DNA of 20,462 nucleotides from Candidatus Methanomethylophilaceae archaeon (GCA_944320495.1 CALUHR010000011.1:1-20462), one strand, 5' to 3'. Positions 754 through 15,913 are shown, numbered from the stretch's first letter. Notes: generated by a model from the letters alone, not told the origin. Numbers and translations: made by a program.

Positions 754-2007
754 ATGTCCATGGATCCCAAGCTGGAGGAGGTAATCAGAACCCACCCTTG
801 CTACTGCGAGGACGCCCACAGGAGCTTCGCCAGGATGCACCTCCCGGTGGCTCCGAGATGCAACATCCAATGCAACTTCTGCAACAGGAGGTTCGACTGC
901 TGCAACGAGTCGCGCCCCGGCGTAACCAGCGAGGTCCTCACCCCCGAGGCCGCTGCCGATAAGGTGGCCTATGTGAAGGAGAGGATCCCGAACCTCAGCG
1001 TCATAGGGATCGCTGGGCCGGGCGACCCTCTTGCCAACGAGGAGACGTTCCGCTCCATCGAACTGGTGCGCAAGAGGTTCCCAGACCTCACCCTCTGCAT
1101 ATCCACCAACGGGCTCGCCCTCCCCGACTGCGCCGATAGACTCTATGATCTCGGCGTCAGGTTCGTCACCGTCACGGTAAACGCTCTCACCCCGGAGACC
1201 GGCGCCGAGGTCTACGACTCCGTCGTCTTCGGCGGGAGGAGGCTGAGGGGCGTGGAGGGCGCATCCGTGCTCCTCTCCCGCCAGCTCGAGGGCATAGAGA
1301 GGTGCGCCTCGCTTGGCATGGCCGTAAAGGTGAACGTCGTGATGATCCCCGGAATCAACGACGGCGAGATACCGGACCTCGTCAAGAAGGTCAAATCCCT
1401 CGGAGCGTACATGGCCAACATACTCCCGCTGATCCCCGTCGAGGGGACCAGGTTCGCGGACCGCAGGGCCCCCACCCCGCAGGAGAGGAGGGAGATGATG
1501 GACCGCTGCGAGCTCGACGCCAGGATGATGCGCCACTGCCGCCAGTGCAGGGCCGATGCCATAGGCCTCCTCGGAGAGGACAGGTCCCCGGAGTTCGTCC
1601 ACATAGGCGGGTGCGGCTCCGGTTGCGGACCGCAGGGGGACGCCGTCGGCTGCGACGAGTCCGTCGTAGCCGTCGCCACCTCGGACGGCCGCACGGTCGG
1701 GGGGTTCGGCAACTCCACATCGTTCAGGGTCTACGCCACGGACGGCGGGACCTGCAGGTTCCTGAGAGAGGTCCCGGTCGACCTCACTCTACCTGTGTCG
1801 GGCGGCAGCCACCGCGACCACATCGAGAGGATCGCATCGTCCCTCGCCGGGTGCGGGACAGTCGTCGTCAGCGAGATCGGGGAGATGCCGTCCAGGGTGC
1901 TAGCCTCCAGGGGAGTCCGCGTCGTGAGGGCCTCCGGCGACGTCGACAGGGCCGTCCGCGACGCCCTCCGACGTCCCGACGAATGTATTATTAGTGACTC
2001 CGCATAG
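754..2007 (+). CDS. nifB: NifB radical-SAM Fe-S cluster biosynthesis protein with C-terminal NifX-like domain
   Basis: All NifB signature motifs present: HPC, CNIQCNFC (CX3CX2C), ESRPG, AGPGDPLAN, TVTVN, CRQCRADAIG. C-terminal domain VAVATSDG...F..Y...C.TVVVSEIG...L...G. Standard-code stop is TAG 2005-2007; an in-frame CGA at 1969-1971 may be the real end. Confidence 0.93.
   Translation: MSMDPKLEEVIRTHPCYCEDAHRSFARMHLPVAPRCNIQCNFCNRRFDCCNESRPGVTSEVLTPEAAADKVAYVKERIPNLSVIGIAGPGDPLANEETFRSIELVRKRFPDLTLCISTNGLALPDCADRLYDLGVRFVTVTVNALTPETGAEVYDSVVFGGRRLRGVEGASVLLSRQLEGIERCASLGMAVKVNVVMIPGINDGEIPDLVKKVKSLGAYMANILPLIPVEGTRFADRRAPTPQERREMMDRCELDARMMRHCRQCRADAIGLLGEDRSPEFVHIGGCGSGCGPQGDAVGCDESVVAVATSDGRTVGGFGNSTSFRVYATDGGTCRFLREVPVDLTLPVSGGSHRDHIERIASSLAGCGTVVVSEIGEMPSRVLASRGVRVVRASGDVDRAVRDALRRPDECIISDSA
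1980..1993 (+). promoter_or_regulatory. Putative alaS promoter (CGAATG-TATTATTA) inside the standard-code tail of nifB
   Basis: AT-rich TATA-like element ~40 nt upstream of alaS ATG 2032; GGTG Shine-Dalgarno-like site at 2022-2025. Confidence 0.45.
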
Positions 2008-2031
2008 CGGGCGCCATAACTGGTGTGCATC

Positions 2032-3810
2032 ATGGACGCTCAGCAGATGAGAGAGACCTACATCGACTTCTTCAAGGCGCGCGGACACACTCAGATCCAC
2101 TCCGCGCCCCTCATTCCGGAGAACGACCCCACCGTTCTCTTCACGACCGCGGGAATGCACCCGCTGGTGCCCTACCTCCTCGGGGAGAAGCACCCCGCCG
2201 GACGCAGACTCACGGACTTCCAGAAATGCGTGAGGACCGGTGACATCGACGAGGTCGGCGACGCCAGCCACCTCACGTTCTTCGAGATGCTCGGCAACTG
2301 GTCCCTCGGGGACTACTTCAAGAAGGAGTCCGTGGGATGGAGCTACGAGCTCCTCACCGAGGTGCTCCACATCGACCCGAACCACCTCGCCGTCACCTGC
2401 TTCAGGGGCGAGGACGGCATCCCCAGGGACGACGAGACCGCCGACCTCTGGAGGAGCCACGGCCTGAGGGACGACCAGATCTTCTTCTACGGAAGGGAGG
2501 ACAACTGGTGGGGACCCGCCGGCCAGACCGGACCCTGCGGACCCGACACCGAGATCTTCTACGACGACGGCAGGCCCAAATGCGGACCCGACTGCGGACC
2601 GTCATGCCACTGCGGCAAGTACACCGAGATCTGGAACAACGTCTTCATGGAGTACAACAAGCAGGCCGACGGGTCGTTCAAGCCCCTGGCCCAGAAGAAC
2701 GTCGACACCGGCATGGGCCTGGAGAGGATCCTCCGCGTCCTGAACGGCGTGGAGACCGTCTACGACACCCCCCTGTTCACCGGCATCATCGGCAGGATCG
2801 AGGAGATCTCCGGGAAGAGGTACAAGGAGGACCCCGAGGACGTCAAATCCTTCAGGGTCGTCGCCGACCATCTGAGGGCCGCCACCTTCATGCTCGGCGA
2901 CGGCGTCGTCCCGGCCAAGGTCGGACAGGGATACATCCTCAGGAGGCTCATCAGGAGGGCCAGCAGGTACCTCTCCAAGCTCGGGGTGGACGAGGTCTGC
3001 ATGCGCTCCATCGCCGAGGTCGTCGTCTCCGAGTACTCCGCGGCATACCCCGAGCTCGAGAGGAACAAGGAGACCATCTACTCCGCCCTCACCGCCGAGG
3101 AGGAGAAGTTCCACAAGACCCTGACCAAGGGCCTGCGCAGGTTCAACGAGATGATCGCCGAGGCAGGCGACTCCGAGACCCTCGACGGCGCCGCGGTGTT
3201 CCGCCTCTACGACACCTTCGGATTCCCCATCGAGCTGACCCAGGAGCTCGCCGCGGAGCAGGGCAGGAAGGTCGACGTCGCCGACTTCGAGAACCGCTTC
3301 AAGGCCCACCAGGAGAACTCCAGGATGGGCGCCGACCAGCAGTTCAAGGGAGGCCTCGCGGACCACGCGGTCGAGACCACCAAGCTCCACACCGCCACCC
3401 ACCTGCTCAACGCCGCCCTGAGGAAGATAGTGGACCCGTCCATCCAGCAGAGGGGGTCCAACATCACCGCCGAGAGGCTCAGATTCGACTTCAACCTCGA
3501 CAGGAAGGTCACCCCCGAGGAGCTCAAGGAGATCGAGAAGTACGTCAACGACGCCATCAAGGCCGCCATACCGGTCGTCTGCGAGGAGATGACCTACGAG
3601 CAGGCCAAGGAGCGTGGCGCCATCGGCGTGTTCACCGACAAGTACGGCGAGATGGTCAAGGTCTACACCATCGGCGACGTCTCCTGCGAGATCTGCGGCG
3701 GACCCCACGTGTCCAACACCTCCGAGCTCCAGGGCTTCAAGATCAAGAAGGAGGAGAGCTCCGCCGCCGGCATCCGCAGGATCAAGGCGGTCGTCGGCAA
3801 GTTCGACTGA
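2032..3810 (+). CDS. alaS: Alanine--tRNA ligase, short bacterial-type form (592 aa, no C-Ala domain)
   Basis: Motifs FTTAGMHPL, FQKCVRTGDI, TFFEMLGNWSLGDYFKKE, VDTGMGLER, GYILRRLIRRA, LYDTFGFP. Editing motifs HTATH and CGGPH present. Start ATG 2032 follows a GGTG SD (the track's 2023 is a GTG). Confidence 0.97.
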   Translation: MDAQQMRETYIDFFKARGHTQIHSAPLIPENDPTVLFTTAGMHPLVPYLLGEKHPAGRRLTDFQKCVRTGDIDEVGDASHLTFFEMLGNWSLGDYFKKESVGWSYELLTEVLHIDPNHLAVTCFRGEDGIPRDDETADLWRSHGLRDDQIFFYGREDNWWGPAGQTGPCGPDTEIFYDDGRPKCGPDCGPSCHCGKYTEIWNNVFMEYNKQADGSFKPLAQKNVDTGMGLERILRVLNGVETVYDTPLFTGIIGRIEEISGKRYKEDPEDVKSFRVVADHLRAATFMLGDGVVPAKVGQGYILRRLIRRASRYLSKLGVDEVCMRSIAEVVVSEYSAAYPELERNKETIYSALTAEEEKFHKTLTKGLRRFNEMIAEAGDSETLDGAAVFRLYDTFGFPIELTQELAAEQGRKVDVADFENRFKAHQENSRMGADQQFKGGLADHAVETTKLHTATHLLNAALRKIVDPSIQQRGSNITAERLRFDFNLDRKVTPEELKEIEKYVNDAIKAAIPVVCEEMTYEQAKERGAIGVFTDKYGEMVKVYTIGDVSCEICGGPHVSNTSELQGFKIKKEESSAAGIRRIKAVVGKFD

Positions 3811-4948: not shown

Positions 4949-4982
4949 CTGCTCCGTGTTAGCACGTAGCACGGTGAACGAT

Positions 4983-5780
4983 ATGATGTTCGGAAAGAGC
5001 GTGAGGCTTGAGAGGATCGTAGACAGGAATACGGGGAACTGCGTCATCGTCCCCATGGACCACGGGATCTCCATCGGACCCGTCGCCGGCCTCGTCGACA
5101 TGAAGAAGACCGTGGACGACGTCGCGAACGGCGGGGCCACCGCGGTCCTGATGCACAAGGGCCTCATCAGATACAGCTACAGGAGCAGCGGTCACGACAT
5201 CGGTCTGATCATGCACCTCTCCGCCTCCACCGACCTGGGGGTGACCAGCAACAGCAAGGTCCTCGTCGCAACCGTCGAGGAGGCGATCAAAGCCGGTGCG
5301 GACGCAGTCTCCGTGCACCTCAACGTGGGCGCGGAGACCGAGGGCGAGATGCTGGCCGACATCGGCCGCATCGCCAAGGAGTGCAACGACTGGGGCATGC
5401 CCCTCCTCGTCATGGCCTACGCCCGCGGACCCAAGATCCAGAACTCCTACGACCCCGTGGCCGTCGCCCACGCCGCCCGTGTCGCCACCGAGCTCGGAGC
5501 GGACATCGTCAAGTGCAGCTACACCGGCGACCCCGACTCCTTCAGGGAGGTCGTCAAGGGGGCCCTCGCTCCCATCGTCATCGCAGGCGGACCCAAGATG
5601 AACTCCGACAGGGAGATCCTCCAGATGGTCTACGACTCCATCCAGGCCGGAGGCCACGGCGTGTCCATCGGCAGGAACGTGTTCCAGCACTCCAACGTCG
5701 AGGGTATGACCAGGGCCATCTCCGACATCGTCCTCCACGGATACGACGTCGAGGAGTCCATGAAGAAGAACCTGAGCTGA
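4983..5780 (+). CDS. aroA': 2-amino-3,7-dideoxy-D-threo-hept-6-ulosonate (ADH) synthase (class I aldolase, MJ0400 type)
   Basis: VPMDHG, GADIVK (Schiff-base Lys), AGGPK, GRNVFQ; adjacent to DHQ synthase II. Start at 4983 or 4986 after the SD; the track's 4851 start is an upstream extension. Confidence 0.9.
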   Translation: MMFGKSVRLERIVDRNTGNCVIVPMDHGISIGPVAGLVDMKKTVDDVANGGATAVLMHKGLIRYSYRSSGHDIGLIMHLSASTDLGVTSNSKVLVATVEEAIKAGADAVSVHLNVGAETEGEMLADIGRIAKECNDWGMPLLVMAYARGPKIQNSYDPVAVAHAARVATELGADIVKCSYTGDPDSFREVVKGALAPIVIAGGPKMNSDREILQMVYDSIQAGGHGVSIGRNVFQHSNVEGMTRAISDIVLHGYDVEESMKKNLS

Positions 5781-6796
5781 TGCCGATGGACAAGGAGATC
5801 TGGATCAGGGCGGACATACCCGACGACGCGGAGAAGCGCAAGCAGCTCGTCCTCTCCGCGCTCGAATCGGGGATAGACACGGCGATCGTCAGACCCGGGG
5901 ACGACTTCGGCTCCCTCGGGAAGGTCAGACTGTTCGAGAACGACGGCGGGAAGCTCACGGGCAACTACGAGCTCGTGGCCCTCAGGACCCCCGACGACCA
6001 GGACAGGGCCATGGCTATGGCCGGCAAGAGGGCGGGGGTGATCCTCGACTCCTCCGACTGGACGGTCATCCCCCTCGAGAACCTCATAGCCAGGTTCAGG
6101 GACTCCGGCACCAGGGTCTACGCCTGCGCCGCCGACAGGGAGCAGGCCAAGCTCTACATGCAGACCCTGGAGAAGGGCGTCGACGGGATCGTCATCACCA
6201 CCGAGGACCCCAACGCCGTCAGGGGGTTCGCCGACATCATCTCCAGCAGCGCCGACGTCGAGCTCGTGCCCCTGGAGGTCACCGAGGTCAGGAACATCGA
6301 GATGGGCGACCGCGTCTGCGTCGACACCGTCTCCATGATGGAGCCGGGCGAGGGGATGCTCATCGGGTCCTCCGCGTCGTGCATGTTCCTCGTCCAGTCC
6401 GAGAGCGAGGACAACGGGTACGTGGCCGCCAGACCGTTCCGCGTCAACGCCGGGGCGGTCCACGCGTACGTCATGGGACCCGAGGGCAGGACCAGGTACC
6501 TCGCCGAGCTCAGATCGGGCGAGCCCGTCGTCCTCGTGAAGAGGGACGGGTCCACCCGCATATCCTCCGTGGGAAGATGCAAGATCGAGCAGAGGCCGCT
6601 CATCCTCATGAAGGCCACCGACGGCACCTCCACGTACTCCACGATCCTGCAGAACGCCGAGACCGTCAGGCTCGTGACCCCCGAGGGGTCCGTGTCCGTC
6701 GCCGCCCTGAAGAAGGGTGACAGGGTGCTCGCCAGGCTGGAGTCCGGCGGACGCCACTTCGGCATGAAGATCGAAGAGACCATCAGGGAGATCTGA
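5780..6796 (+). CDS. aroB': 3-dehydroquinate synthase II (NAD-dependent, MJ1249 type)
   Basis: GDRVCVDT, RPFRVNAGAVHAY, STILQNAETVRL, GRHFGMKIEETI. TGATG coupling with the upstream gene at 5778-5782; alternative start 5786. Confidence 0.93.
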   Translation: MPMDKEIWIRADIPDDAEKRKQLVLSALESGIDTAIVRPGDDFGSLGKVRLFENDGGKLTGNYELVALRTPDDQDRAMAMAGKRAGVILDSSDWTVIPLENLIARFRDSGTRVYACAADREQAKLYMQTLEKGVDGIVITTEDPNAVRGFADIISSSADVELVPLEVTEVRNIEMGDRVCVDTVSMMEPGEGMLIGSSASCMFLVQSESEDNGYVAARPFRVNAGAVHAYVMGPEGRTRYLAELRSGEPVVLVKRDGSTRISSVGRCKIEQRPLILMKATDGTSTYSTILQNAETVRLVTPEGSVSVAALKKGDRVLARLESGGRHFGMKIEETIREI

Positions 6797-8100
6797 TGAG
6801 GGTCTGCGCATCGCTGAGCTCCGTCTCGGAGCTCGACACTCCGACCAGGCTCGTGGAGATCCGCCTGGACCTCCTGGGCTCGGTCCCCGAGGACCCGAAG
6901 GGGCACGAGATGCTCGTGACCTTCCGCGGACCCGTGGACACCGGCGTCCTCCCCGAGGGGTTCTCCGGCATGATAGACATCGGCGAGGAGCACCGCCCCG
7001 AGACCTCCGCCACCGTGGTGGCGTCCCATCACGACTTCGAGGGCACGCCCACGGCGGAGCGCATCGGGTCCATCCTCTCCGGGATGGACTGCGACATAGC
7101 CAAGGGCGCCTTCTCCGTCGGCTCCTTCAGGGACCTCGTGAGCATCCTCGACGCCGCCAGGTCGCTGGGGAGGAGGCACGTGGTGCTCGGCATGGGCCCG
7201 CTCGGCACGATAACCCGCGTGAGGGCGGACATCCTCGGGAACGAGTTCAGCTTCGGATACGTCGGCGAGCCGACGGCTCCCGGACAGCTCAGCGCCGAGA
7301 GGATGGAGAGGCTGCCGGACGGATGCACCGTGCTCGGGATCGTCGGGAGGCCGCTCTCCAAGAGCAGGTCCCCGGCCATGCACAACGCGGCCCTGGAGGC
7401 CGCCGGGATCGACGGCATATACCTGCCGTTCGAGGCGGACGACCTGGACCAGGTGGAGGAGGTCGTGCGCGGATACGGCATCCGCGGGCTCAACGTCACC
7501 ATACCGTACAAGATCGACATCATGGACCACCTCGACGCCGTGACGGCCGACGCCTCCGCCATGGGGGCGGTCAACACCGTGGTCAACGAGGACGGCAGGC
7601 TCGTCGGGCACAACACCGACGTGGCCGGGGTCCGCAACGCCCTGTCCAGGGCGGGCATCGAGGCCGAGGACGGCCGCGTGCTCATCATGGGATCCGGAGG
7701 GGCCGCCAGGGCGATCGCCCACTGCGCCGCCGGGATGGGCTGCGACATCACCGTCACCGGAAGGAACGCCGAGACCGGGTCCGAGCTCGCCTCGGACTTC
7801 GGAGGCGTCTACCGCGACCCGAAGTCCGTATCCGTGATGATGTACGACCTGATCGTCAACTGCACCCCGGTGGGCATGTACTCCGACGGACCGTATCCCG
7901 TGGACATATCGCGCATCCAGAGGGGACAGGCCGTGTTCGACATGGTCTACGGCCGCGAGACCCCTCTGATCAGGCGCGCCAGGGAGGTCGGGTCGCCGGC
8001 AGCCACCGGCGAGGACATGCTGGCCGGCCAGGGGGCCGAGTCCTTCAGGCTCTGGACGGGCATCGATGGCATGTTCGACACCATGAGGGCCGTCCTATGA
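6796..8100 (+). CDS. aroDE: Fused type I 3-dehydroquinate dehydratase / shikimate dehydrogenase
   Basis: N-domain EIRLD, SHHDF, DIAK, MGPLG..TR, APGQL. C-domain SRSPAMHN, NVTIPYK, GAVNT, NTD, GSGGAAR, VNCTPVGM, DMVY, GEDMLAGQG. TGATG coupling at 6794-6798. Confidence 0.93.
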   Translation: MRVCASLSSVSELDTPTRLVEIRLDLLGSVPEDPKGHEMLVTFRGPVDTGVLPEGFSGMIDIGEEHRPETSATVVASHHDFEGTPTAERIGSILSGMDCDIAKGAFSVGSFRDLVSILDAARSLGRRHVVLGMGPLGTITRVRADILGNEFSFGYVGEPTAPGQLSAERMERLPDGCTVLGIVGRPLSKSRSPAMHNAALEAAGIDGIYLPFEADDLDQVEEVVRGYGIRGLNVTIPYKIDIMDHLDAVTADASAMGAVNTVVNEDGRLVGHNTDVAGVRNALSRAGIEAEDGRVLIMGSGGAARAIAHCAAGMGCDITVTGRNAETGSELASDFGGVYRDPKSVSVMMYDLIVNCTPVGMYSDGPYPVDISRIQRGQAVFDMVYGRETPLIRRAREVGSPAATGEDMLAGQGAESFRLWTGIDGMFDTMRAVL

Positions 8101-8936
8101 CATCGGTCGGCAGGTCCCACGGCTCCATAACGGTGATAAACGCCATGCCCAGCGGCATAGGGGCCACCATCGGAGTCGCCCTGAAGACCGAGGCGAGGTT
8201 CGCCGTCGGAGGGGACGCCAGAGAGGTCAGGATCGCCAGCGATGCGGGCGAGGACCCGACCATGGCGGCGATATGCGTGCGCAGGGCCTACGAGGCCGCC
8301 GGGATCCCCGAGCCGGACGGCTGGACGCTGGAGACGTCCTCGGAGATACCCGTGTCCAGAGGGCTCAAGAGCAGCAGCGCCGCCTGCAACGCCATCATCA
8401 GGGCCGTGTTCGCGGAGATCGGACACCGCATGGACCCCGTCGACCTCATCAGGCTCGGGGTCGGATGCGCCAGGGAGGCCAAGGTCACCGTCACCGGGTC
8501 CTTCGACGACGCCTGCGGATGCGGGCTCGGAGGCCTGGTCATGACCGACAACCGGAGGGACGAGATATTGGACAGGTCGGACATCGGCGAGTACGATGTC
8601 GTCATCCACGTCCCCCGCTTCAAGATCAGGAAGTCCTCGATGCCCGTCGAGGCGCTCCGCGCCGCGGCGCCGGAGCTCGAGGAGGCCGTGGACATCGCCA
8701 TGACCGACCCCTTCAGAGCCATGACGATCAACGGGCGCGTCATATCGAGGGTCCAGGACGTGGACAACTCCCTCGCGGAGAGGGCCGTGTCCATGGGGGC
8801 CCTGGGAGCGGGGATGTCCGGGTCCGGCCCCGCCATAGCCATCGTCGTGCCGCACGGCGACGGGCGGTCCTTCGCCCGCGACCTCGGCACGGATCCGGAG
8901 GAGACCATCATGACAACCACGAGGTGCGGCGAATGA
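8097..8936 (+). CDS. aroK: Archaeal shikimate kinase (GHMP family)
   Basis: ITVINAMPSGIGA, PVSRGLKSSSAA, TGSFDDA, AGMSGSGPA; ATGA overlap with aroDE at 8097-8100. Confidence 0.93.
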   Translation: MTSVGRSHGSITVINAMPSGIGATIGVALKTEARFAVGGDAREVRIASDAGEDPTMAAICVRRAYEAAGIPEPDGWTLETSSEIPVSRGLKSSSAACNAIIRAVFAEIGHRMDPVDLIRLGVGCAREAKVTVTGSFDDACGCGLGGLVMTDNRRDEILDRSDIGEYDVVIHVPRFKIRKSSMPVEALRAAAPELEEAVDIAMTDPFRAMTINGRVISRVQDVDNSLAERAVSMGALGAGMSGSGPAIAIVVPHGDGRSFARDLGTDPEETIMTTTRCGE

Positions 8937-10294
8937 CAAGTATAGCGTTCCGCGGAGGGGAGATATCCGGAAGGATATCCCCGCCGCCGTCCAAGAGCCA
9001 CACACACCGGGCCGTGTTCCTGGCCTCGATGGCCGAGGGGCGCTCGGAGCTCTCTAACTGCCTGCTTTCTGCCGACACGCTGGCCACCATGGACGCCTGC
9101 AGGGCGATGGGCGCATCGGTGTCGCTGGAGGGACAGGACGCGACCGTCGACGGAGGGGACCTCAGGGCCCCCGCCGCGCCGATCGACGCCATGAACTCCG
9201 GGACCACCATGAGGATACTGACCGGCATATGCTCGTCGTTCGACCGCCCGGTCACCATCACCGGGGACGAGTCCCTAAGGAAGAGGCCCATGGGCCCCCT
9301 CCTGCAGGCCCTGGGATCCTGCGGGGTCGCCTGTTCGTCCAACGGAGGCCTCCCCCCTGTGACCGTCCAGGGACCGAACCGCGGTGGCCCGGTGTCCATA
9401 GACGGGAGCGTCAGCTCCCAGTTCATCACATCCCTGATGCTCACCGCGCCCCTGCTGAGGGACGGGTCCGTCATCACCATCGAGGGCGACCCGGTGTCGG
9501 CCCCCTACCTGGACGTCACCTCGCACATGATGAGGCTGTACGGCGCCGAGGTCCGCAGGGACGGCAACGTGTTCGAGATCCCCGGCACCGGATACACCCC
9601 ATACGACTACGGCGTCCCGGCGGACTTCTCGTCCGCGGCGTTCCCCATGGTGGCCGCCGCTCTGGGCGGCGAATGCACCGTGACGGGGATGGATCCCGCC
9701 GACCCGCAGGGCGACAAGATGATCGTCGACATCCTGCGCATGGCGGGTGCCGATGTAACCGTAGACGGCCGCGAGGCCCGCGTGAGGGCGGGTCCGCTCA
9801 AGCCGTGCGAGATAGACATGGGGCAGGTCCCGGACCTGTTCCCGGTCACGGCGGTGCTGCTGAGCACCGCGGAGGGGGAGAGCCGGCTGTACGGCGCTCC
9901 CCAGCTGAGGTTCAAGGAGAGCGACCGCATCGAGACCACCGTCCGCATGATCAACGCCCTGGGAGGCGACGCGGAGGGGACCGAGGACGGGTGCATCATC
10001 CACGGCGTGGGACGTCTGAGGGGCGGGAGCGTGGAGCACCACGGCGACCACCGCATCATGATGTCCGCGGCCGTGGCGTCCGTCGTCTGCGACGGACCCG
10101 TCACCATGGCCGACCCGGAGTGCGCGGCCGTATCCTTCCCCGGATTCCCGGCGGCGATGGCGGGCATCGGCCTGAGATCGGAGGTCCAGCGATGTACCAG
10201 TTCGGAACCAGGCTCAGGTTCACGCTCTTCGGCAGGAGCCACGGCCCCTGCGTCGGGGGCATCCTCGAAGGCGTCCCGACGGGATTCGCCATAG
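8933..10294 (+). CDS. aroA: 3-phosphoshikimate 1-carboxyvinyltransferase (EPSP synthase)
   Basis: PPSKSHTHR, NSGTTMR, GDESLRKRPM, SSQFITSLML, KESDRI, GDHRI, SFPGF. ATGA overlap with aroK at 8933-8936. The standard-code end (TAG 10292-10294) creates a 103-nt overlap with aroC; in-frame CGA 10190-10192 would give a 419-aa protein. Confidence 0.95.
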   Translation: MTSIAFRGGEISGRISPPPSKSHTHRAVFLASMAEGRSELSNCLLSADTLATMDACRAMGASVSLEGQDATVDGGDLRAPAAPIDAMNSGTTMRILTGICSSFDRPVTITGDESLRKRPMGPLLQALGSCGVACSSNGGLPPVTVQGPNRGGPVSIDGSVSSQFITSLMLTAPLLRDGSVITIEGDPVSAPYLDVTSHMMRLYGAEVRRDGNVFEIPGTGYTPYDYGVPADFSSAAFPMVAAALGGECTVTGMDPADPQGDKMIVDILRMAGADVTVDGREARVRAGPLKPCEIDMGQVPDLFPVTAVLLSTAEGESRLYGAPQLRFKESDRIETTVRMINALGGDAEGTEDGCIIHGVGRLRGGSVEHHGDHRIMMSAAVASVVCDGPVTMADPECAAVSFPGFPAAMAGIGLRSEVQRCTSSEPGSGSRSSAGATAPASGASSKASRRDSP

Positions 10295-11271
10295 ACATGG
10301 ACGCGGTCGCGGAGGAGATGAGGCTCCGCAGACCCGTCGGAGGGATCGGCACGCCAAGGAGGGAGGCTGACGTCCCGGAGTTCGTCCAGGGCATCACGGA
10401 CGGGCGCGCCACCGGCCAGCCCATCCTCATAAAGATAGCGAACGGGAACACCGACGGCTCGAAGTACGCCGCGTTCTACGACACCCCGCGCCCGGGCCAT
10501 GCGGACCTGCCGGCGCTGCTGAAGTTCCCGGACCACGACCTGAGCGGCAGCGGCCAGTTCTCGGGCAGGCTGACCGCGGCCATCGTCGCCGCCGGGGCCG
10601 TCGCCAAGCAGATCATCGCGGAGAAGGGCGTCTCCGTCGACGCCTTCACCCGCTCGGTCGGCGAGGTGGCCGACGGCTCGGTGCGCACCGCCGCGGAGGC
10701 CCGCGGATCCCGCGCCTTCGCCACCCGCGCATGCACCCAGCGTCTCGACGACGCCATGAGGGACCACATCGAGAGGGTCGGCGCCTCCCGCGACAGCGTC
10801 GGGGGCACCGTCGAATGCATCGTCTCCGGGCTGCCCATAGGCTTCGGAGGTATCTGGTTCGAGGCCCTGGACGCAGAGCTGGCACATGCGATGTTCGGCA
10901 TCCCGGCGTGCAAGGGCGTCGAGTTCGGGGACGGATTCGAGCTCGCGGCCATGCGCGGGTCGCAGTCCAACGACGCGTACCGCATGGACGGCGGCAGGAT
11001 AGTCACCGCGAGCAACCACATGGGCGGCATCGTTGGCGGCATGTGCGACGGGGCGCCGGTCGTCCTCAGGGTCGCGTTCAAACCGACCCCTTCGATAGGC
11101 GTAGAACAGAGGACCATCAACCTCAGGACCGGGACCGACGACACGGTCACGGTCGAGGGTAGGCACGACCCCTGCATCGTCCCCCGGGCGGTGGCGGTCG
11201 TGGAGGCCATGGCTGCTCTGACCGTGGCAGATCAGATTGCGAGGGGATTCCGATGGGATTGGATTCTATAA
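10192..11271 (+). CDS. aroC: Chorismate synthase
   Basis: FGRSHG, RPGHAD, SGRLTA, DSVGG, KGVEFG, SNHMGGI.GG, KPTPSI, GRHDPC; GGAGGT SD at 10180-10185. Standard stop TAA 11269-11271; in-frame CGA at 11251-11253. Confidence 0.95.
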   Translation: MYQFGTRLRFTLFGRSHGPCVGGILEGVPTGFAIDMDAVAEEMRLRRPVGGIGTPRREADVPEFVQGITDGRATGQPILIKIANGNTDGSKYAAFYDTPRPGHADLPALLKFPDHDLSGSGQFSGRLTAAIVAAGAVAKQIIAEKGVSVDAFTRSVGEVADGSVRTAAEARGSRAFATRACTQRLDDAMRDHIERVGASRDSVGGTVECIVSGLPIGFGGIWFEALDAELAHAMFGIPACKGVEFGDGFELAAMRGSQSNDAYRMDGGRIVTASNHMGGIVGGMCDGAPVVLRVAFKPTPSIGVEQRTINLRTGTDDTVTVEGRHDPCIVPRAVAVVEAMAALTVADQIARGFRWDWIL

Positions 11272-12305
11272 GGGATGAGATAGCCGAGGTCGACAGAGGA
11301 ATCCTCGAGCTGATGAAACGCAGGCTGGAGCTCGCCCGCATGGTGGGCGAGGAGAAGGTCAGGACCGGCGCCGCCGTGAGGAACGCTGCGCAGGAGGACA
11401 GGGTCGCCGACAGGTACAGGGGCTTCGCCCTGGAGAACGGCATGAACCCCGTCTGCGCCGAGAGGGTGTGCCGCATCCTCATGCAGGAGTCCGTCGACCT
11501 CCAGGCGTCCATGCCCCGGCCGGCCGAACATGCCCGCCATGTGGCGGTCATCGGCGGCTACGGGAAGATGGGGCGCTGGATGGCGGACCTCCTGAGGAGC
11601 TCCGGCCACAGGGTCGACATCATCGACCCCTCCGCGGGGAACGGCCTGAGGACCGAGGACGCCAAGTGGGCCGACACGGTGATCGTCTCCATCCCCATAT
11701 CCCGCACCGGGGGCATGCTCCGGAAGCTGGACGGGATCTGCGGACCCGACACGCTGATCCTGGACATCGCCTCCCTCAAATCGCCGTTCATCGACGTGCT
11801 CAGGGAGCTGGGCTCCCGCAGGAGGGTGTGCTCCGTGCACCCCATGTTCGGACCGTCAGCGGAGTCCATGCATGACAGGAACCTCGTGGTCTGCGACTGC
11901 GGGTCCCGCGAGGCGGTGGATGACGCCCTGTCCCTGTTCGGGAACCACGGCGCCAACATCCGCACGATGCCCGTGGAGGATCACGACAGGTACATGTCCT
12001 ACGTCCTGGGGCTGAGCCATGCGGTCAACATCGCGTTCTTCACGGCTCTGGACAGGAGCGGGATATCGTTCCGCGACATGGAGTCGGTCGCCTCGACCAC
12101 GTTCGAGAAGATGATGGACACCAACCAGTCCGTCGCCCTCGAGGACCCCTACCTCTACTACGAGATCCAGCACATGAACTCCTCCCGCGAGACCATGCTG
12201 AAGGAGTTCGACAGCGCCGTCCACGACGTGGTGGAGGCCGCCCTGAGCGACGACCCCTCCGCGTTCAAGGAGCTAATGGACAGGGGACGCGAGTACTTCA
12301 CCTGA
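11253..12305 (+). CDS. tyrA: Bifunctional chorismate mutase / prephenate dehydrogenase
   Basis: AroQ-type N-domain (LDSIRDEIAEVDR.IL.L...R....K...R...E). PDH domain with VIGGYGKMG, DIASLK, SVHPMFGP, HDRYMSYVLGLSH. Confidence 0.9.
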   Translation: MGLDSIRDEIAEVDRGILELMKRRLELARMVGEEKVRTGAAVRNAAQEDRVADRYRGFALENGMNPVCAERVCRILMQESVDLQASMPRPAEHARHVAVIGGYGKMGRWMADLLRSSGHRVDIIDPSAGNGLRTEDAKWADTVIVSIPISRTGGMLRKLDGICGPDTLILDIASLKSPFIDVLRELGSRRRVCSVHPMFGPSAESMHDRNLVVCDCGSREAVDDALSLFGNHGANIRTMPVEDHDRYMSYVLGLSHAVNIAFFTALDRSGISFRDMESVASTTFEKMMDTNQSVALEDPYLYYEIQHMNSSRETMLKEFDSAVHDVVEAALSDDPSAFKELMDRGREYFT

Positions 12306-13899: not shown

Positions 13900-15363
13900 T
13901 CAGAGGTACTTACGGTAGTCGTACCTGCCGTCCCTGACGCGGGCGTTGACCTCGTCGGAGATCCTCTCGAGATCCCCGGGCTCGAAGAGTCCGGACGTTA
14001 TGTCACGGAACCCCTGCGAGGACATCATGTGCACCGAGCACGACGACACTCCGAACCTCCTGCCTATGGGGCCAGAAGCGACCTCGGTGTACTGGACCTT
14101 GTCGTAGTTGATGTACTCGACGGAGAGGTCGTAGGACCCGTGGACGATGAGGAACGAATCCTCGCCCATGCACACTGCACGGTGCCTCTGTGCCAGGACC
14201 ACACGGCCGGCGATGAGGATGACGAGGAGCAATGGCACGGCCACGAGCAGAGTGAGCGCCGTGGCGCTCCAGAACGGTGTGAGCGTGTCCGCGAACTCTA
14301 CCGCATATCCGCTGATGAACCCGAAGGACACCAGGATGACGACGGCCAGGATGAGGTTGGCGATGGCCATCGCCTTCAGCGCCCCGCGGGGCTGATGCTC
14401 CGGCTCTGGCTCGAAGTACAGCTCGGGGACCAGCCTCCCGAGCAGGTCCTCCACCTCCCTCCGGTCCTTTAGCGGGCAGAGTATCGGCATGTTCTCGTTC
14501 TCCTCCCCCATGCCGACGACCTCGGCCTCGAGGACCGAGCGTCCGATGAGCCTGGCGAAGATCGGGGACCTTAGGCGGACGGAGTTCACCTTGTTGACCT
14601 TGAAGGACCTGCGAGTGTGGGTGAACATGCCGCTCTCGACGGTGATCGTGTCCCCCAAGCGATAGACCCTGTAGTTGTAGTACTTCAGGATCGAGGATAT
14701 CAGCGGCAGGATGTAGGACACGAGCATCAGGATGACGGCTGTCAGCAGACCGCCTGAGCTCTCATAGAACAGCGAAATCACAGCATAGATCAGCATCACC
14801 AGTCCGAACAGCTGCTGACCGGTGGGCTGACCCAGGGCCGCGTTCAGGATGACGTCCCTGTTGGTGACCAGGATCATCGTGGACTCCAGGAGCTCCGTCT
14901 CGACGGTCGTCTCCTTGGAGAAGATCCTGGAGTTTAGCTCGTCGCGGAGACGGTCCGCCTCCGCCCTCTTCAGGACCAGGGTGGCCTCTGCCGCGGTGGC
15001 GTTGACGCTGCTGTTGACGTTGAACATCAGCGCGGACGTCCCGAAGATCATGTTGAAGATGTCCCTCCTGACGGTGACGGAGGCCAAGCGGGTGTACTGG
15101 ATGTGCTTGTCGGACTTGGTCAGTAGCATGTCCCTGACCACGTTCAGCTCCGTCGGCGTGAACGTGTACACGGTCCTCCTCCAGAGGGCCACACAGTAGA
15201 GGAACACCAATGCCGTCAGCACCGCGACCAGGGTCAGCGTCTTAGTGAGGCCGTCGACCACATCGATGACGTTCAGGATCACGAACAGCACCACCGCAGC
15301 GGCGAAGGCTTGGCTGACCAGGACGGTCGGATGGTTACGGAGGGTTATCGACTCGTCTCCCAT
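13900..15363 (-). CDS. YdbT-like membrane protein with multiple bacterial PH (bPH_2/DUF304) domains
   Basis: Alternating hydrophobic hairpins and bPH-type segments (YTF...V.R.ML...I.Y.R..SV; YRVYR...G.F...R.F...KVNSV; INYDKVQ.TEV..GPI.RRFG). Start MGDESITL at 15363, preceded by a GGAGAGG SD; the track's 15735 start is an extension. Confidence 0.8.
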   Translation of the reverse strand: MGDESITLRNHPTVLVSQAFAAAVVLFVILNVIDVVDGLTKTLTLVAVLTALVFLYCVALWRRTVYTFTPTELNVVRDMLLTKSDKHIQYTRLASVTVRRDIFNMIFGTSALMFNVNSSVNATAAEATLVLKRAEADRLRDELNSRIFSKETTVETELLESTMILVTNRDVILNAALGQPTGQQLFGLVMLIYAVISLFYESSGGLLTAVILMLVSYILPLISSILKYYNYRVYRLGDTITVESGMFTHTRRSFKVNKVNSVRLRSPIFARLIGRSVLEAEVVGMGEENENMPILCPLKDRREVEDLLGRLVPELYFEPEPEHQPRGALKAMAIANLILAVVILVSFGFISGYAVEFADTLTPFWSATALTLLVAVPLLLVILIAGRVVLAQRHRAVCMGEDSFLIVHGSYDLSVEYINYDKVQYTEVASGPIGRRFGVSSCSVHMMSSQGFRDITSGLFEPGDLERISDEVNARVRDGRYDYRKYL

Positions 15364-15890
15364 CGGTCCCTCTCCTTGAGCATCCTGACGACGCTCTGGT
15401 TCAGCCTGCCGGCTATGTCCTCGGCGACGTCCTCCTCCAGATGCTCTATGGTCACGGACCCTCCGGCGGTGGTGATCATCACGTCCGCCAACCCGAAGGC
15501 GCGGTTGATGGGACCGCGGGATACGTCGACCTGATGGATCCTCTCGATGGGGACCATCGTATGGGTGATGAAGACGATACCCTTCCTGAGGTCCGCCTTC
15601 TCGTCGTCGATCCTGTACCTGTAGCGCCTGTAGATTATCTCGGGAGCCGCCAGGCAGTACACCGCCGTGACGACGATTATCACGACAGAGAGGACCTGCA
15701 CCGGGAAGGCCCACGTGCCCAGAACATCTGGCCATATGAACGGTGTGGAGAATATCGCCGCGACTATGACGATGGCGATGACGTTGGCGATGTACATCGC
15801 CTTCTTGCTGACAGGTGCGAGTCTGCGATACCCGTCGAACGTCAGACCGTTCTCGTCTACCGCGAACTCGTCACGAGTGCTCAATCCCAT
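15345..15890 (-). CDS. YdbS-like membrane protein with one bPH_2 domain
   Basis: Two TM segments, then YRRYRYRID....LRKGIVF...T.VP..RI.QVDVSRGPI.R.FGLA.V.I.TAGG. Start 15890 is favoured by the TATA at 15919-15914. Standard stop TAA 15347-15345; in-frame CGA at 15365-15363. Confidence 0.88.
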   Translation of the reverse strand: MGLSTRDEFAVDENGLTFDGYRRLAPVSKKAMYIANVIAIVIVAAIFSTPFIWPDVLGTWAFPVQVLSVVIIVVTAVYCLAAPEIIYRRYRYRIDDEKADLRKGIVFITHTMVPIERIHQVDVSRGPINRAFGLADVMITTAGGSVTIEHLEEDVAEDIAGRLNQSVVRMLKERDRWETSR

Positions 15891-15913
15891 GCATCCGCGT
15901 TCGTACGGCATCG

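Follow-up and report, generated by a model that had tools for sequence, protein, structure and literature searches.

Whether an archaeon can end translation at CGA, a codon for arginine, is the question raised by the junction between aroA and aroC in a Candidatus Methanomethylophilaceae genome. The window analyzed here is a whole 20.5-kb contig (C11; GCA_944320495.1 CALUHR010000011.1:1-20462) of a source genome (G000) that comprises 1.77 Mb in 14 contigs, with 62% GC. In this window, the aroA coding sequence (8933..10189, plus strand) specifies an EPSP synthase of 419 amino acids with the C-terminus ...GIGLRSEVQ, and the next codon in frame is CGA (10190..10192, plus strand). Termination of aroA at this codon had been proposed in a preliminary description of the window. 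The proposal is supported by the swap of CGA and TGA among congeners, by the depletion of CGA inside genes, and by its presence at 21% of verified gene ends. On these grounds, CGA 10190-10192 is very probably the functional end of aroA, in a genome that would have purged this codon from coding sequences and re-used it like TGA.

The A of the CGA codon is base 1 of the aroC ATG (10192-10194), which is separated by a 6-nucleotide (nt) spacer from a Shine-Dalgarno-like GGAGGT (10180..10185, plus strand), assigned by reading the sequence. The aroC coding sequence (10192..11250, plus strand) encodes a chorismate synthase of 353 amino acids, matching Pfam PF01264 almost end to end (E 1e-113; profile 1-326/327). 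Under translation table 11, the aroA frame stays open until TAG 10292-10294, which yields a protein of 453 amino acids and a 103-nt overlap with aroC. The apparent 34-codon tail (10193..10294, plus strand), translated as RCTSSEPGSGSR...RRDSP, is the aroC N-terminus in another frame. All of these details had been reported in the preliminary description and were reproduced here, as were the overlaps of only 1 or 4 nt upstream in the operon; the four junctions share 1, 1, 4, and 4 nt (5780, 6796, 8097-8100, and 8933-8936), the last being an ATGA common to the aroA ATG at 8933 and the TGA of the shikimate kinase gene. It had also been stated that 419 amino acids is a normal size for an EPSP synthase, and this holds. 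Pfam PF00275 finds a full-length match within the 419 residues (residues 9-407, profile 5-415/417, E 1e-106); the profile is thus exhausted before the CGA, which supports AroA ending there. Moreover, 7606 of the 8000 candidates scored were AroA homologues at E <= 0.001, and many of these, 416-420 amino acids long, stop at the same residue as the 419-residue form. These comparisons support AroA as a normal 419-residue EPSP synthase, the aroA/aroC junction as an ordinary 1-nt overlap with CGATG in place of TGATG, and the 34-residue tail as a likely artefact of table 11 translation. A frameshift at CGA to a nearby stop, as proposed for mitochondrial AGA/AGG, was rejected, since neither the +1 nor the -1 frame offers a stop at the aroA junction.

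At the DNA level, we compared this junction across 23 genomes from the GTDB genus of this archaeon, which named records identify as Candidatus Methanoprimaticola (family Methanomethylophilaceae, order Methanomassiliicoccales). The preliminary description had suggested looking for TGA at this codon in relatives, and TGA is what most of them have: at the identical alignment position, AroA ends with TGA in 13 of the 23 congeners and with CGA in the other 10 (G000, G018, G013, G010, G004, G023, G014, G002, G003, and G012). Among the named records, Ca. Methanoprimaticola sp. MG2, UBA480, and UBA537 carry CGA, and Ca. M. hominis Mx06 carries TGA. Two of the CGA genomes, G014 and G002, have this codon 7 nt upstream of the aroC start (GAR CGA TAC C ATG), and their sister G006 has TGA there; the effect is thus independent of overlap with the start codon. 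A deeper clade of the genus shows the same exchange in another setting, TGC CGA xATG versus TGC TGA xATG. In other families, aroA and aroC are joined by ordinary ATGA overlaps in all seven sampled genomes. The end codon of aroC (11251) varies likewise, being CGA, TGA, or TAA across the genus and TGA or TAA in other families. One genome of another family has a CGA three codons before the aroC end; other outgroups have AGA or CGT there, which identifies this particular CGA as a plain Arg codon.

Homologues of AroA with 60-96% identity fall into two classes, those that end in ...SEV[LMQ] and those that continue with tails beginning RC[TS]. These tails range from 3 to ~53 amino acids, a length set by the next stop in the aroC region. 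The 102 nt that follow the junction contain 66 variable sites, of which 32 are third positions of aroC codons and hence second positions in the frame of the tail, a pattern indicating that the tail is not evolving as protein. The extension failed a conservation test in length, frame, and substitution pattern alike. Conservation of the tail as protein, named in the preliminary description among the observations that would refute termination at CGA, is therefore not what the homologues display. Public AroA records carry read-through tails, with total lengths of 427-472 amino acids; the RefSeq AroA of MG2 has 427. Methanoprimaticola-type aroA also occurs on two contigs (L219 and L230) whose assembly titles read "Bifidobacteriaceae bacterium" and "Bacteroides salyersiae"; these records are probably mis-binned or mislabelled.

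To assess codon usage across the genome, open reading frames were taken from a 400-kb portion of G030, a genome that belongs to another family, and aligned to the present genome by tblastn; at each locus, only the frame with the highest score was retained. CGA was found in 10 of 66,497 orthologue-aligned codons, and 9 of these 10 lie at weak 5' alignment edges. Counts for other codons in the same set were 194 for CGT, 218 for AGA, 98 for CGG (which stays Arg in this genome), 2 each for TGA and TAA, and 0 for TAG. In the control genome G030, the 59k aligned codons include 101 CGA, of which 68 align with Arg. The window itself conforms to this pattern: its 17 genes contain no internal in-frame CGA among 6190 codons, 424 of which specify Arg, although out of frame CGA can be read 1137 times. 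Tests based on third-position GC content, in which loss of frame after CGA resembled that after TGA, carry no weight here, because antisense frames contaminated them. Two side signals, TAG as a sense codon and CGG as Leu, arose from antisense and alternative frames of equal third-position GC; both disappeared when each locus was represented by its best-scoring frame alone, and both readings are rejected.

CGA is thus depleted inside genes, and it sits at the ends of orthologues. At 194 orthologue C-termini, a standard stop comes first in 159 (152 TGA and 7 TAA) and CGA comes first in 35. The offsets of these 35 from the outgroup end run from -10 to +9 and are centred on 0, and the next standard stop lies up to 468 codons further on. 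With three reference genomes pooled for comparison, the orthologue-verified gene ends (n=306) comprise 229 TGA, 65 CGA (21%), 10 TAA, and 2 TAG. A scan of the whole genome for xyATG junctions whose upstream frame is open for at least 3 more codons returned 38 with CGA and 3-4 each with GAA, AGA, and GCA, next to 44 proper TGATG junctions; the excess of CGATG is beyond chance. Restriction of the effect to CGATG start overlaps is ruled out by the fact that only 12 of the 65 verified CGA ends have this form, by the spacer that follows the CGA at 1969 in this window, and by the displaced CGA of G014 and G002. The nucleotide immediately 3' of the end codon may serve as a context signal: T makes up 58% and A 6% of these positions after a terminal CGA, versus 32% and 21%, respectively, where the gene ends with TGA. 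The commonest terminal context is CGATC (22/65), and C or G comes next at the two sites described below where CGA would be read through. TAG is nearly unused (0/66,497 aligned codons and 2/306 verified ends). ARAGORN found no tRNA-Pyl, tRNA-Trp, or tRNA-Tyr in this genome, genes that may have introns or be unassembled.

Several findings weigh against CGA being a clean stop codon. The first comes from the gene for the release factor aRF1 (G000 contig C2:85933-87165, minus strand; locus L142:934-2166), which has exactly one in-frame CGA in 13 of 13 sampled genomes of the genus, at codon 78 of 410. It encodes an invariant Arg 20 residues after the NIKS motif, in the context GCT/TCT CGA CTN AAR, where the neighbouring codons vary synonymously; in other families of the order, the same position is AGG, AGA, CGG, or CGC in 7 of 8 sampled genomes. 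Judging by this alignment, CGA at the invariant Arg must be read as sense. The second is the sole non-edge CGA among the 66,497 codons, which stands where the GmhA domain gives way to the GmhB domain (C13:194143-194145, minus strand; L141:1144-1146). This codon is CGA in 10 genomes of the genus, TAG in 2, TAA with a frame change in 4, and AGA/AAG in 3; in another family it is AAA. In this genome, no start codon comes after the CGA, and the catalytic DxD motif begins 4 codons on, so that GmhB seems makeable only by read-through. A conserved CGA without a following start argues, at the level of sequence comparison, that CGA is no pure stop. The two retained codons thus make the code ambiguous rather than cleanly reassigned, since sense use of CGA persists. 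A further point is the tRNA with anticodon UCG, found by ARAGORN (G000 contig C13:413317-413390). It is kept in at least 14 genomes of the genus, and substitutions in its acceptor and anticodon stems compensate one another, which indicates purifying selection; CGA is presumably still decodable as Arg. Loss of this tRNA as the cause of the CGA trait is accordingly rejected, the gene being present in every closely examined genome of the genus.

The release factor itself provided another point of the same kind, in that the comparison of aRF1 sequences found no genus-specific change tied to the CGA trait. A single aRF1 and a single Pelota were found per genome, and the NIKS and YxCxxxF motifs of the aRF1 of the genus are intact. 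An Arg-to-Met substitution occurs at NIKS+7, counted from the N of NIKS, a residue that we take, by our own numbering, to correspond to human R68. Arg is present there in outgroups, Halobacterium (4af1), and Aeropyrum (3agk). Elsewhere in the family (20 genomes representing 18 genera; L173-L192), this residue is mostly Met, with some Leu or Lys and Arg only in g19 and g20; the substitution is therefore family-wide and was discarded as a marker of the genus.

The anticodon arm of the tRNA does distinguish the genus. Outside the genus, tRNA(UCG) has a C31-G39 pair and a CUUCGGA loop in all comparisons, which covered five genera of the same family and one further family. Positions 31 and 39 are always mismatched in the main Methanoprimaticola clade (A.A, C.A, or U.C), and in the more distant congeners G008 and G015, C33 replaces the near-universal U33 and is accompanied by a 27-43 mismatch. 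Among the genera compared, a non-canonical anticodon arm of tRNA(UCG) is found only in Methanoprimaticola. G008 (53% GC) and G015 (57% GC), both complete genomes, have 5 and 4 CGA in 31k and 43k aligned codons, respectively, none of them on Arg, and few candidate CGA ends. Counts in four more genera of this family gave 1-12 CGA per 14-23k codons, a few of them on Arg, and 0-3 candidate CGA ends. This distribution fits a family-wide disappearance of CGA followed by its capture as a stop in Methanoprimaticola. CGA accounts for a far larger fraction of stops in the 62%-GC genome studied here than in G008 and G015, a difference for which T-to-C mutation pressure on TGA could be the source.

For CGA, depletion within genes, placement at orthologue ends, and exchange with TGA site by site are established; with its conserved tRNA and two sense sites, it appears to be a codon that is ambiguous but read mostly as a stop. 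The mechanism that we favour has four parts. The single aRF1 would terminate on CGA besides UGA and UAA; at CGA, it would compete with a deliberately weakened tRNA-Arg(UCG); this tRNA would be retained because the aRF1 site and the gmhA-gmhB boundary still need Arg; and the CGA at codon 78 of aRF1 would act as a feedback device resembling that of prfB, abundant aRF1 stopping its own mRNA early. Recognition of CGA by aRF1 against a weakened tRNA, retention of the tRNA for two Arg sites, and feedback, taken jointly, have in our estimation a little better than an even chance of being correct. Extended to the whole genus, the reading is that CGA is a fourth, context-dependent stop read by aRF1, used by 2-22% of genes according to the GC content of the species, with tRNA(UCG) serving solely for programmed read-through at aRF1 and gmhA-gmhB; we regard this extension as fairly probable.

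None of the rival explanations, namely ribosome rescue, mRNA editing, real tails, or sequencing error, fits the whole pattern as well. The one that survives best holds that CGA is unassigned, or "hungry": ribosomes with a damaged tRNA(UCG) would stall and be released by aPelota/ABCE1 splitting and peptidyl-tRNA hydrolase, not by aRF1. It draws on the genus-restricted alteration of the tRNA(UCG) anticodon arm, on the canonical codon-recognition motifs of an aRF1 in which a genus-specific change was not found, on the Pelota gene present in every genome, and on the lower-GC congeners, which, with CGA purged and few CGA ends, look like an unassigned stage. Stalling and rescue at 21% of genes would, however, be slow and costly, and CGA and TGA replace each other freely at the same positions. 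The genus-wide CGA in the aRF1 gene, moreover, is sensible as feedback only if aRF1 acts on CGA, and the T bias after terminal CGA is of the kind seen with context-dependent release factors. We therefore consider release by rescue unlikely.

Editing of C to U in the mRNA would turn CGA into UGA, so that the ribosome meets a standard stop, and it would leave the same genome-level picture as reassignment, with CGA and TGA interchangeable. Plant organelles create stops from CGA in this way; mRNA editing is not known in archaea. Such editing would need to spare the conserved CGA codons of aRF1 and gmhA-gmhB, and a tRNA(UCG) under selection implies that some unedited CGA reaches the ribosome; we hold this explanation to be very unlikely. 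That CGA is plain Arg, AroA truly bearing the 34-residue tail and the 103-nt overlap as a tolerated stop loss, agrees with the open table 11 frame to 10294, with the existence of a cognate tRNA gene, and with public annotations, including that of RefSeq MG2, which list an extended AroA. It would require the same stop loss at 21% of genes, some frames then running on for as many as 468 codons across the genes that follow, together with avoidance of CGA at essentially all real Arg positions, and the tails are conserved neither in length nor in frame; this reading is highly improbable. A sequencing or assembly error hiding a T at 10190 is hardly credible, given that an independent assembly (G018; 99% identity, ENA record) and at least nine further species from different projects also have CGA, and that an error cannot account for the missing internal CGA codons.

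Organelles are the only documented setting of sense-to-stop changes (PMC6821328; NCBI tables 2, 22, and 23): UCA (and UCG) in mitochondria of Sphaeropleales, UUA/UUG in Pycnococcus and thraustochytrids, and AGA/AGG in vertebrate mitochondria (PMC6821328). The archaeal pattern resembles these cases in that the sense codon is gone from coding sequences and is back only at ends where relatives have standard stops, in that disappearance precedes capture, and in the accompanying changes to release factors or tRNA sets. The organelles differ in having tiny genomes, bacterial-type release factors, and a lost cognate tRNA, whereas this archaeon is free-living, with ~1.8 Mb, ~1,800 genes, and one eRF1-type factor; its codon has C in the first position, its tRNA is altered but kept, and two sense sites persist. 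An archaeal case is described in a preprint by Melnykov (bioRxiv 10.64898/2026.04.02.715157), who reported two archaeal metagenome-assembled genomes from hydrothermal vents with CGG as Trp and CGA possibly as stop. There, CGA is absent from recognisable protein domains; by the preprint's own account its method cannot infer stops, and it gives no gene-end evidence (10.64898/2026.04.02.715157). The vent genomes belong to another lineage, lack tRNA(UCG), and have CGG reassigned, whereas in the genome studied here CGG is Arg and the evidence at gene ends is direct.

Methanogen UAG, read as pyrrolysine or stop (PMC12626013; bioRxiv 10.1101/2024.09.30.615893), offers a parallel in the competition of a tRNA with aRF1 and in the same archaeal order, but there a stop gains sense, and here a sense codon gains stop. 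Neither of these pyrrolysine-code papers (PMC12626013; bioRxiv 10.1101/2024.09.30.615893) mentions CGA. Like bacterial prfB, which encodes RF2, the aRF1 gene carries early on a conserved in-frame copy of what would be its own factor's stop codon; the UGA of prfB is bypassed by a +1 frameshift, whereas the archaeal CGA would need read-through by tRNA-Arg(UCG), with feedback as a conjecture. The loss of the 31-39 pair beside a code change recalls the tRNA-Trp of Blastocrithidia, which has a 4-bp anticodon stem (PMC13092985); as described there, the short stem lets the tRNA read a stop, whereas the mismatch in Methanoprimaticola would weaken or alter the tRNA. Our literature search found no description of CGA termination in Methanomassiliicoccales.

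If true, termination at CGA in this genus would be the first sense-to-stop change outside organelles and in a free-living organism. It would also provide the first release factor that accepts C in the first position, challenging the strict U requirement of eRF1/aRF1. A cellular case with ~1,800 genes and intermediate stages in relatives would make the codon-capture and ambiguous-intermediate models testable; the stages visible are CGA purged across the family, the tRNA damaged across the genus, and a share of CGA stops that is apparently higher at high GC. By extension from AroA, about one-fifth of the proteins of the genus are probably annotated too long, with false tails and overlaps, and correct gene calling in these human- and animal-gut methanogens requires a new translation table. 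Members of Methanomethylophilaceae supply PylRS/tRNA pairs for genetic-code expansion, which makes a host with a natural CGA stop in this family of applied interest.

Elsewhere in the window, 4 of the 17 genes end with CGA (1969, 10190, 11251, and 15365-15363 on the minus strand). The CGA of aroC (11251..11253, plus strand) overlaps the ATG of a gene encoding a chorismate mutase-prephenate dehydrogenase fusion (11253..12305, plus strand; Pfam CM_2, PDH_N, and PDH_C), which ends with TGA. Pfam domains also named the remainder of this archaeal shikimate operon, upstream of aroA (4956..8936, plus strand), as a DeoC-type ADH synthase, DHQS-II, an aroD-aroE fusion, and a GHMP shikimate kinase, all with TGA ends. 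With CGA taken as a stop, the entire plus-strand operon tiles at overlaps of 1 or 4 nt. A radical SAM/NifB-like gene (754..1971, plus strand) ends with CGA at 1969-1971, its Pfam domains reaching residue 403 of 405; a non-coding spacer of ~50-60 nt follows, without overlap with an ATG. On the opposite strand, a small bPH_2-domain gene (15363..15911, minus strand) ends with CGA at 15365-15363, in a CGATG overlap with the next bPH_2 gene. Other genes of that strand encode an FGGY kinase, IlvD, EF-1alpha, and EF-2. Besides the radical SAM/NifB-like gene, the region upstream of the operon carries tRNA-Ala and genes for AlaRS and for HATPase_c_2 and STAS-domain proteins, the last two following that for AlaRS. 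The AlaRS gene (2023-3810, plus strand), which ends with TGA, encodes 595 amino acids with the catalytic domain and tRNA_SAD, and seems short for an archaeal AlaRS.

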